Assembly (NCBI RefSeq): GCF_055900595.2
Contig: NZ_CM148325.1
Direction: 5' to 3' (one strand)
Length of the DNA: 64,000 nt
Made by a program: the position numbers and the translations under genes. Each line of letters opens with the position of its first letter. Position 1 is the stretch's first letter. Below the pieces are notes generated by a model. That model was given only the letters and a program-made list of their open reading frames with translations, searched no databases and was not told the origin of the DNA. Of this stretch, positions 1 to 2,805 are shown one piece after another.

Positions 1-1844
1 ATATTTTTCGCCATTTTTCCATTTTCATTTGTTTGATATATCACTCCAGGTATTCGTTGAAAAAAACTAGATAATGCATATTTGTCCGCTACATATGTAT
101 CATCCACATGATATTTCCCACCGAGCATAGTTGTAGTAACAATAAGCTTATACACACCTTTGGGTTGCCATGTTGATGGTAGTTCGAATTCTTTAATGAT
201 CACATCAAGATGATTAAGATAATGTTCAGAAATTCGATTTATTTGTTGAAAATAAGAACGCATAAATTTATTATTATGATCATGTATTAATGAGCTATCT
301 CCAACGATGTTACACACTTGCTGATAGTACTTACCATAATATATTGGTTGACCATTTGATTTTAGTTCTGTAAAAATCAAACAATCATCCAGGAGAATCA
401 CGCAATCGCACTGATAATTAGCATGAGCATCAATTGGAGAAGCTTTAATCCCCGCATCACGAACTTGTTTTATAAATTGTTGCTCATGAAATCGCCCTTT
501 ACTTGCTTGAGAAATTTTTTTGGAACCAAATAATGACATTAGAGAGCGAGTCACTGAGCTATTTGCTATTAATGCAGGCATTAAGCATAAACCGTCCATA
601 CAGGGAATAAATGGGCAATCATTAAGATCATGTGATTTTGAATTGAAGGTAAAATAATCTATCAGTTTTTTTGCTGCATCTGCTGCAATCCCCTTACGTT
701 GAAAGAATGATAACCAACTCTCACGGTTTTTTATGACCAGCCAGCGATCCAACTGTAGGGGTATAGGTTTTGTCGATGAAAATCTTTTGCTCATTTCTTC
801 TTTAGATAACTCGACTAAACATTGATAAGCGTGCACCCAATTAAATAATGATATATTCCCATATTCTTCATGAAGGTCATCAGGAGACATATTTTCCAAC
901 TCGCTTAAATGAAATGAGCTAAAAACGCCATCAGAATTTAAGTAAGATGGCATATGATCCTTTACCCAACTATTTAGATGAAAATGTTTGTTACTAAATT
1001 CATGAACTTCGCTATATAGATGTGACGCTCTCATCATTAGTCTATTTCTTGCAATCTCATAATCTCGGTATAAACAAAAACTATCAACCTCAAGAGAGTA
1101 AATGTTATTATCCAATTTTGTAAATACTGCACTACTTAGTCTGAAAAAGTCTCTTACTCTGCTTAATGAGTCAAAAACATTCCACTCATTAAGGTACCCT
1201 CCCATTGAAAGCAAGGTTTGTTTATTCACACAAGAAGTTAGTTTCAATGGCCCATGAGTCCGTAAATAAGAAAATATTCTTCCGGTGTAATTGGCTACCT
1301 CATCAAATGCCCTATCGATAACTCGAAAATATTCGATATCAGGTTCAGCATGAATATTAATATTTTCAGTAACGATAAATAATGGAAAAATCCTCTTCAT
1401 TTTTTTAGGATCATTGACCACAACCAAGGATGATAATGATGATAAAAACATCTCACAAAACATGATGAGATTAAGTATTAATGCATGTGATTTTTTTGTA
1501 TTTTTACGCCAAATACCAGCACATTTTGCAGCCGCAAAGAAAGAATTATTTATATCATGCATAATTTTACATTGACTCTCGAACTCAGAGATTAGTTCAA
1601 TGTTATCAGGAAATGAGTTTACTAGCTCATTAATACATTTTTTGAATGTATTGTTATACTCAACTTCAGTCTGAACTGAAAATCTATTATAATAGATGGA
1701 AGATATTCTCAGCACATCCAAGGCGATATCTATACTAATATCATCTCTTTTTATGTACTCACAAAAAAAAAGAACAAAACTGTTTCGGGTCGTTAGCAAG
1801 ATTACTAATTCTAGTGGTATCATAAACTTTTTCCATTTTTCCAT
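1..1844 (-). CDS. Hypothetical large protein, 3' end cut by window edge (at least 614 codons); AT-rich island gene with PD-(D/E)xK-like nuclease motif
   Basis: ATG at 1844-1842 on minus strand; I read all 614 codons down to position 3 and found no stop; in-frame stop at 1859-1857 closes the frame upstream. By-eye G+C about 30% versus about 50% in the flanking core. Translation contains FHEQQF...QCDCVILLDD...TELK around residues 450-495. Absent from the ORF track because it has no in-window stop. Confidence 0.6.
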   Translation of the reverse strand, partial: MEKWKKFMIPLELVILLTTRNSFVLFFCEYIKRDDISIDIALDVLRISSIYYNRFSVQTEVEYNNTFKKCINELVNSFPDNIELISEFESQCKIMHDINNSFFAAAKCAGIWRKNTKKSHALILNLIMFCEMFLSSLSSLVVVNDPKKMKRIFPLFIVTENINIHAEPDIEYFRVIDRAFDEVANYTGRIFSYLRTHGPLKLTSCVNKQTLLSMGGYLNEWNVFDSLSRVRDFFRLSSAVFTKLDNNIYSLEVDSFCLYRDYEIARNRLMMRASHLYSEVHEFSNKHFHLNSWVKDHMPSYLNSDGVFSSFHLSELENMSPDDLHEEYGNISLFNWVHAYQCLVELSKEEMSKRFSSTKPIPLQLDRWLVIKNRESWLSFFQRKGIAADAAKKLIDYFTFNSKSHDLNDCPFIPCMDGLCLMPALIANSSVTRSLMSLFGSKKISQASKGRFHEQQFIKQVRDAGIKASPIDAHANYQCDCVILLDDCLIFTELKSNGQPIYYGKYYQQVCNIVGDSSLIHDHNNKFMRSYFQQINRISEHYLNHLDVIIKEFELPSTWQPKGVYKLIVTTTMLGGKYHVDDTYVADKYALSSFFQRIPGVIYQTNENGKMAKN

Positions 1845-2485
1845 ACATCCTATTGTCTAAATTACTATAAAACTAGCCACTTAACTAATAATTATAAATT
1901 TCATCTTTTACACCTTGCATTTTTATAACCAATGAAATCTACAACAAGCAACTGATGGATAATCCGATATTGGTCGCATTTAATGGCATGGTAGCAAAGT
2001 TTTCATCACATACCTCCTTTGCACCAGAATAAACGCCAGAGACCTGAAATTGCGAGTACACTACAGAAATTGTACTGCCGGTCCCATCAGCATAAAACCA
2101 TAGTTACACAGGTAATCATCATTATTCACCAAGATAATAAATATTATTCGGTAGAATAGCGTTCTCAGGTGGTCAGTAAAATTGTCTTCAACAAGATGTC
2201 TGCGCATCTCGTCTGCTAGCCCTACATAACTGCTCTCGACCGAAACTATTTATTGAATGTTCACCAAGGTGGGCGTGGAGACAAAATGACGTCTTTTGAT
2301 ATTAGCTACCTGAGCCACATGGTCAAAACGTTCAAGTAGCATAGCGAAACCACCCTGCCCACGTAATGTGGACGATGCAGCTCCCAGCCAGAGCAAACTT
2401 GGGACCATCGACTACAAAATGAAGAATACTGAACTGCTTTTCTGGCAGGCCTATATACTGCACGGATATGGGTGATTTCAGACAC

Positions 2486-2510
2486 AAAAAAAGCCGCTCT
2501 TAAGCGACTC
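2486..2510 (-). terminator. Putative rho-independent terminator of leuX (hairpin with one G-U pair, then U-run on minus strand)
   Basis: Plus-strand A-run 2486-2492 followed by inverted repeat gccgct/agcgac 2493-2510, lying directly 3' of the tRNA on the minus strand. Confidence 0.45.
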
Positions 2511-2525
2511 GATTTGCATACGGTG

Positions 2526-2610
2526 TGGTGCCGAAGGCCGGACTCGAACCGGCACGTATTTCTACGGTTGATTTTGAATCAACTGCGTCTACCGATTTCG
2601 CCACTTCGGC
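2526..2610 (-). tRNA. leuX: tRNA-Leu (anticodon CAA)
   Basis: Reverse complement reads GCCGAAGTGGCGAAATCGGTAGACGCAGTTGATTCAAAATCAACCGTAGAAATACGTGCCGGTTCGAGTCCGGCCTTCGGCACCA: 85 nt with CAA in the anticodon loop, a long variable arm and an encoded CCA end. Confidence 0.92.
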
Positions 2611-2805
2611 ACTGAAGAGGTATGCGGAAAACGTTGTGGATTATACCTGTCACGCGCCACCATGCAAGCGCCAGCTTGCTCCCACCTCGCTAAGTGCTGA
2701 AATTTTCAGCATTGCATACAGCGATGTGTAACCTTTGTCACACTCCAGGCACCCCGCCCTACCATGCTCTACACTTCCCAGACAACACCAGAGAAGGACA
2801 AAAAT

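Follow-up and report, generated by a model that had tools for sequence, protein, structure and literature searches.

In Escherichia coli, the tRNA gene leuX anchors defence hotspot #37, which PMC12707154, citing PMC10121019, gives as the most occupied of 41 such hotspots and as one in which the cargo is replaced between strains. A hypervariable region at leuX is also described in Salmonella (Bishop et al. 2005, cited in PMC12707154), and the set of three described for O-island 172 (10.1101/2025.09.22.677730) lies within the known context of the leuX locus. P4-type tyrosine-integrase islands, namely PAI-UTI89-leuX, PAI II of strain 536 and the K-12 intB element, involve the same tRNA gene and the same 24-bp target as the locus considered here; the sizes and cargo of the leuX PAIs are given in PMC7545054.

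We analysed a 64,000-nt stretch of E. coli chromosome (the window), in which leuX is followed on its right by ahr and idnK-D-O-T-R and is separated on its left, by a 669-bp gap at 1857-2525 (also called the spacer), from a large minus-strand ORF that runs past the window start. Like hotspot #37, this locus is anchored at leuX and carries variable cargo. However, PMC12707154 describes an integrase at the leuX anchor, whereas the variant in the window, present in 106 complete genomes, is without one and its cargo abuts the leuX terminator. Compared with the leuX islands, for which the spacer of the window is the sequence just outside the far-end repeat, the locus has no integrase, no second repeat and nothing between leuX and the spacer, which is the state of an empty site. 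The original prediction had taken the gap for the place in which an integrase had decayed or from which it had been lost by deletion, so that the island would be a fixed remnant. We consider it very probable that the gap is non-coding, with an unoccupied leuX site on one side and, on the other, the first cargo gene of defence hotspot #37. The features of the region, in window coordinates, are listed below.

1..1844, minus strand: large ORF for a hypothetical protein, 678 aa in the common allele, running off the left end of the window
1828..1844, minus strand: 8-bp tandem duplication (TTTTTCCA x 2.1 as read on the plus strand), from Tandem Repeats Finder
1860..2084, no strand assigned: AT-rich non-coding DNA upstream of the large ORF, from GC content, a promoter scan and identity to the related sequence L008
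2085..2360, minus strand: pseudogene remnant of a HipA-family Ser/Thr kinase toxin, from Pfam, tblastn, a custom profile and dN/dS
2361..2473, no strand assigned: non-coding DNA with no Pfam, HipA-profile or integrase match
2474..2525, no strand assigned: conserved leuX trailer, from blastn and a four-way alignment with strains of differing cargo
2484..2510, minus strand: predicted rho-independent leuX terminator, from a terminator scan and RNA folding
2526..2549, no strand assigned: integration core attB, the 3'-terminal 24 bp of leuX, from alignments with UTI89, SCPM-O-B-12142, 19M19 and Nissle
2526..2610, minus strand: leuX, tRNA-Leu(CAA), from ARAGORN, the Rfam tRNA model (59.4 bits) and RefSeq annotation in matching genomes

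The left limit of the gap, 1857-1859, is the stop codon that closes the large-ORF reading frame upstream. Between this codon and leuX, no ORF starting with ATG, GTG or TTG exceeds the 59 aa of that at 2306..2485 on the minus strand, and stop-free stretches reach at most 72 codons. Among random 669-mers of the same first-order composition, 42% likewise had no ORF of at least 60 aa; the absence of ORFs is statistically unremarkable, and only the length of the intergenic region is unusual. GC content is 41% in the gap (30% at 1857-2000) and 33% in the large ORF, compared with about 54% in ahr on the other side of leuX. Tandem Repeats Finder and a repeat search detected no repeats inside the gap, the sole tandem repeat being the duplication at 1828-1844 just outside it, and a check for IS, REP and other repeated elements showed that no E. 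coli genome has any portion of the gap at a second location. Phage records gave no match to the gap; plasmid records matched the trailer only, in records of chromosome size.

At the right-hand side of the gap, the predicted leuX terminator consists of a stem–loop at 2491-2510 with an 8-bp stem, followed on the minus strand by a T-run (the U-tract) at 2484-2490. Its computed folding energy is -16.7 kcal/mol (z = -3.2), and none of 200 shuffled sequences folded as well. By its sequence, the element has what is expected of a rho-independent terminator, that is, a stable hairpin and a U-tract directly after the gene. The intrinsic terminators of other tRNA genes likewise combine a GC-containing hairpin with a U-tract, here 15 nt past the mature 3' end, and nothing about this one is out of the ordinary. 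The terminator lies within the trailer, which occupies the last 45-52 bp beside leuX, occurs in 1771 of 5426 complete E. coli genomes and is the sole widely shared part of the gap, adjoining either leuX or the 24-bp repeat described below; the more distant blastn matches begin at positions 617-628 of the gap query. The outer edge of the trailer, at about 2474-2484, is the junction at which the conserved flank gives way to variable cassette DNA, directly after the U-tract. Three elements of the original prediction are thereby confirmed: a gap at 1857-2525 without any ORF of 60 aa or more, a leuX terminator hairpin (given as 2486-2510, which is essentially right) and an island junction inside the gap, located here by the edges of the blastn matches and by strain alignment. 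Islands at leuX were also seen to bring a trailer of their own, with flanks homologous to those of the chromosomal trailer at 2474-2525 and a different sequence in the stem of the terminator hairpin, as in UTI89 (L023 8198-8260) and K-12 (L007 1491-1539).

The complete 669-bp spacer was found in 337 of the 5426 complete genomes (about 6%), in 291 of them at an identity of at least 99%. All copies are chromosomal, and RefSeq annotates no feature within them. The full-length spacer is always accompanied by the large ORF, with 332 genomes covering at least 80% of window positions 1-2700. Because the spacer never occurs without the large ORF, we regard it as part of an imported cassette and not as ancestral core DNA. 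Using a junction-spanning query that runs from the spacer into leuX, we could separate two layouts: the spacer is contiguous with an intact leuX in 106 complete genomes, which is also the layout of the window, and in the remaining genomes (about 226) the match ends 24 bp into leuX. In UTI89, SCPM-O-B-12142, 19M19 and Nissle, of which the last two share less of the spacer than the first two, a 24-bp imperfect repeat of the leuX 3' end (one base is missing) stands beside the spacer-side sequence, and the cbtA/yeeU/DUF957 end of a CP4-type island comes next. The order in UTI89 is leuX, integrase, an island of 118.6 kb, the 24-bp leuX 3' repeat, the spacer and the large ORF; the integrase is a tyrosine integrase of 420 aa, 187 bp downstream of leuX, and the island is the 122-kb PAI-UTI89-leuX (PMC7545054). 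In K-12, intB lies 260 bp past leuX. Since the spacer abuts intact leuX in 106 genomes and lies beyond the island-end repeat in about 226, it is outside the mobile island, on the chromosomal side of the integration site, and the leuX attachment site of the window is vacant, not degraded. The vacant site may equally be one left by precise excision.

The gap also contains the remains of a gene of another kind. A six-frame Pfam scan gave a single match, on the minus strand, to HipA_C (PF07804; E = 2.3e-7, 31.1 bits against a cut-off of 30.5). Through an exhaustive HMMER search we found an intact relative, P0098, a protein of 446 aa with an HTH (HipB-like) gene upstream, and its residues 233-325 align to window positions 2360-2085 (tblastn E = 1.3e-31, 60% identity). 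The fragment is thus internal: 93 residues are left of about 440, and neither the N-terminal domain nor the C-terminal end is preserved. It carries an in-frame TAA at 2250-2252 and a one-codon deletion, and the catalytic loop DDDHLRN, which we take to fall on the catalytic residues of E. coli HipA, has become DDYLCN. A custom profile built from 20 full-length HipA relatives matched at E = 1.1e-25 over positions 231-319 of 418 only, or 21% of a HipA protein, and identified no further hipA sequence in any of the six frames of the gap, so both ends of the gene, and any antitoxin, have been lost; consistent with this, the Pfam scan yielded no HTH match of the hipB-type antitoxin in any gap frame. 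For the fragment, tblastn against plasmids matched only annotated HipA genes, a PDB sequence search and NCBIfam gave nothing, and K-12 HipA and HipH were too distant to align. The fragment is therefore clearly homologous to the middle of the HipA C-terminal domain but differs from HipBA type II toxin–antitoxin modules in lacking either end and hipB, in its stop codon and damaged loop, and in its neutral evolution: of the attributes of a HipA kinase toxin, we observed the HipA_C match, whereas a full ORF, an intact loop, a HipB gene and purifying selection were absent.

The evolution of the fragment could be followed in a diverged copy of the whole module, comprising the terminator, the fragment and a large ORF 91% identical in protein, in a Logan assembly (L008). 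The unit shared by E. coli and L008 is 3.3 kb long and of low GC, with the trailer at one end and its other limit about 580 bp beyond the large ORF. Between the two, dN/dS is 0.99 for the hipA fragment, a value based on 114 codons and one pairwise comparison, and 0.108 for the large ORF (dS 0.40). Identity at the three codon positions of the fragment is 0.79, 0.77 and 0.83. A stop interrupts the reading frame in the window, and a frameshift does so in a third lineage (L022). The frame is open in L008 and in a few E. coli genomes; in one of these, L021, 6 of the 669 positions are changed relative to the window, and one of these changes removes the stop. At 41-75% identity, the large ORF has homologues in Salmonella (75%, where the gene closes a conjugative element), Izhakiella, Pectobacterium and another Logan assembly; they stand in unrelated contexts, and a HipA gene is next to none of them. 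It follows that the hipA fragment does not belong to the large ORF as a partner but is a leftover, dead and drifting neutrally, and the loss of its ends shows that deletions or replacements have taken place at the leuX junction.

The rest of the gap is non-coding. On the leuX side of the fragment, 2387-2473 is also present, at about 88% identity, where a 1.2-kb 'membrane protein' cassette replaces the large ORF; strain 19M19 shares 2387-2525 at 88% identity and then diverges. On the other side, the approximately 225 bp at 1860-2084 presumably contain the large-ORF promoter and ribosome-binding site. A sigma-70 consensus scan returned two sites against 3.3 expected by chance, with no convincing consensus site in 1857-2084. 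The one promoter-like site of the gap, at 2326-2299, is not conserved in L008, and we set it aside.

We weighed three other accounts of the gap against this reading. The one put forward in the original prediction, in which a tRNA-anchored island became immobile when its P4-type integrase beside leuX was deleted or decayed within the gap, has points in its favour: the DNA beyond leuX is low in GC (33-41%) and present in about 6% of genomes, so it was imported; leuX integrases usually lie 190-260 bp from leuX; deletions have happened here, the hipA fragment having lost both ends; and in SCPM-O-B-12142 a leuX island has no annotated integrase beside leuX. We nevertheless judge it very unlikely. 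No integrase similarity emerged at any threshold tried: tblastn of the gap with K-12 IntB (best E = 0.55) and with the UTI89 leuX integrase (best E = 2.5) stayed at chance level, and Pfam matches in the six frames, listed to E = 10, included neither Phage_integrase nor Arm-DNA-bind. In about 226 genomes, moreover, the spacer is on the far side of the 24-bp island-end repeat. Allowing up to three mismatches, no second copy of the leuX 3' 24-mer was present in the window, nor was there one across the fimF-leuX interval of about 51 kb in EC42405 (L003/L015), which we used for the far side beyond the window and whose layout is identical to that of the window; no integrase or transposase is annotated in that interval. 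Of the properties of a P4-type-integrase island, neither the integrase nor the distal repeat was found, whereas atypical composition and variable presence were, and these are common to any horizontally acquired DNA. The statement that the gap is free of an integrase thus holds for ORFs and fragments alike; the integrase fragments that had been suspected within it, the direct repeat of the leuX 3' end that had been sought at the far end and the decayed island as a whole do not find support, given a spacer outside the leuX islands. Pseudogene debris had likewise been proposed and is indeed present, but it is of the hipA family and on the minus strand at 2085-2360, neither integrase nor the plus-strand frame that had been quoted. 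That frame (2368..2475, 35 aa) was rejected as debris, as no plus frame matched any family. The original prediction had also named two findings that together would tell against it, and one of them was made: similarity to integrases and mobile elements is lacking, but the full spacer, expected also in strains without the large ORF, always occurs with it. The cassette may have arrived through an ancient integrase-mediated event, with the integrase and the distal repeat later fully erased.

The two other accounts fare no better. That the HipA_C fragment is a small working gene (111-116 aa, in an open frame), a truncated kinase-domain partner of the large ORF, could be argued from its position, ahead of the large ORF in each of three diverged lineages (L008, L022 and the window type), from the open frame in L008 and a few E. 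coli genomes (L021) and from one GenBank record that names a 'HipA domain-containing protein'; yet a dN/dS of 0.99 with equal divergence at all three codon positions, a stop in the window at which ORF calls from other samples also end, the frameshift in L022, a damaged catalytic loop in 21% of a HipA and the homologues of the large ORF without a HipA neighbour leave this account almost no credence. It is highly improbable, too, that the gap is a structured non-coding RNA or a long regulatory leader of the large ORF. Divergence from L008 is uniform, with about 80% identity throughout the spacer, 79% at 1860-2084 and 0.818 at the third codon positions of the large ORF, and it equals that of synonymous or neutral sites; apart from the terminator, no block is conserved. 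In Rfam, with E up to 1, the tRNA was detected and no sRNA or riboswitch family, the gap has no repeats, and the DNA upstream of the large-ORF homologues in Salmonella, Izhakiella, Pectobacterium and the Logan assembly has no similarity to 1860-2084. The points that would have favoured an RNA or leader are the unusual length of the intergenic region upstream of the gene and the AT-richness of 1857-2000, which is typical of regulated horizontally acquired genes.

SCPM-O-B-12142 was examined at L019 13557-14997. The element at leuX in this strain is about 34 kb long, contains a fec operon and IS elements, has no annotated integrase beside leuX and has an AbiJ-NTD4 gene in that place. It is a real case of the imagined integrase loss, but in another strain.

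We return to the reading that we favour, non-coding DNA between a vacant leuX site and the first cargo gene, under which the gap is laid out as follows. Proceeding from leuX on the minus strand, it has first the trailer with the intrinsic terminator, which would end transcription of the tRNA, and directly past the U-tract the junction to the 3.3-kb low-GC cassette. About 110 bp of non-coding DNA follow, then the dead internal hipA fragment and, last, about 225 bp of AT-rich DNA that would hold the promoter and ribosome-binding site of the 678-aa gene. The tyrosine integrases of the leuX islands recombine within the last 24 bp of leuX, and an inserted island then sits between leuX and the spacer, pushing the spacer away intact. 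The absence of an integrase here would follow from the absence of any inserted integrase-bearing island in the window strain.

The cargo past the junction differs between strains: it is a type I R-M system in Sx181-0-1, an Eco31I-type R-M system with McrBC in Nissle and the 'membrane protein' cassette in 19M19. Defence cargo that varies in this way right beside leuX is what characterizes hotspot #37, an identity that we take from PMC12707154. These strain comparisons suggest that cargo at the junction appears to turn over by cassette replacement between conserved flanks and not by a resident integrase; the neighbouring cargo belongs to a known integrase-independent layer of the leuX defence hotspot. 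In EC42405, we also observed a nanM fragment, a kelch-repeat pseudogene (L003 10900-11395, L015 9469-11206), between Zorya II and an HNH nuclease, and an intact nanM with a truncated nanS about 33 kb away, on the other side of an ARMADA/Druantia/Zorya block. This arrangement suggests that the block was inserted into the nan locus or duplicated part of it.

The first cargo gene itself, complete in EC42405 at L003 13799-15835, belongs to a small family found in E. coli, Salmonella, Izhakiella, Xenorhabdus, Pectobacterium and Pantoea as a single gene in unrelated contexts. The family has no Pfam or NCBIfam match, and PADLOC gave a weak match to PDC-M29B (E = 1.3e-3). Four residues are invariant among the homologues (D477...D483...E490-x-K492), and their arrangement resembles a PD-(D/E)xK motif. 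In UniRef, a 52%-identical homologue is named a NERD-domain protein. The AlphaFold model is poor (pLDDT 57.8); a Foldseek search with it against the PDB gave no match below E = 0.5, and the weak top matches are PD-(D/E)xK nucleases. The invariant motif and the position in a defence hotspot make the large ORF a candidate for an uncharacterised nuclease-type defence gene.

The start of this gene varies in a homopolymer. Near its 5' end is a T-tract (A9 on the plus strand, 1763-1771) that has eight residues (T8) in most carriers and seven (T7) in the UTI89 lineage, in which PGAP calls a truncated CDS or none; the nine-residue form of the window (T9) was found in just one genome, SCU-124, among 335 complete ones. 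With nine residues, ATG 1836, the conserved start, is no longer in frame, and the body of the ORF is open from ATG 1844; the two ATGs, in different frames, result from the duplication at 1828-1844, of whose 8-bp unit L008 carries a single copy. Read from ATG 1844, the T9 allele would begin with an unrelated 27-residue N-terminus. The T9 form may reflect a genuine frameshift, slippage of the tract or an error in sequencing the homopolymer. At the other end of the gene, 23 bp past it, a perfect 21-nt inverted repeat with a 2-nt spacer (L003 13733-13776) is probably its terminator. One could go further and suppose that the 678-aa PD-(D/E)xK/NERD-like protein is a single-gene anti-phage system switched by T7/T8/T9 slippage, with its promoter in the gap and the hipA fragment left by a displaced toxin–antitoxin cassette; we regard this combination as unlikely.

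Taken together, the gap is ordinary and explained, at a locus already known, and it matters little beyond annotation. For annotation, an unannotated hipA pseudogene is added to the E. coli genomes with the cassette, roughly 6% of the total, and the boundary between core and cassette is placed no more than about 10 bp from the leuX terminator, a help in parsing pangenomes at hotspot #37. More generally, when a tRNA gene has no integrase next to it, an island has not necessarily decayed there. The more promising lead at this locus is the nuclease-like 678-aa gene with its variable homopolymer tract.
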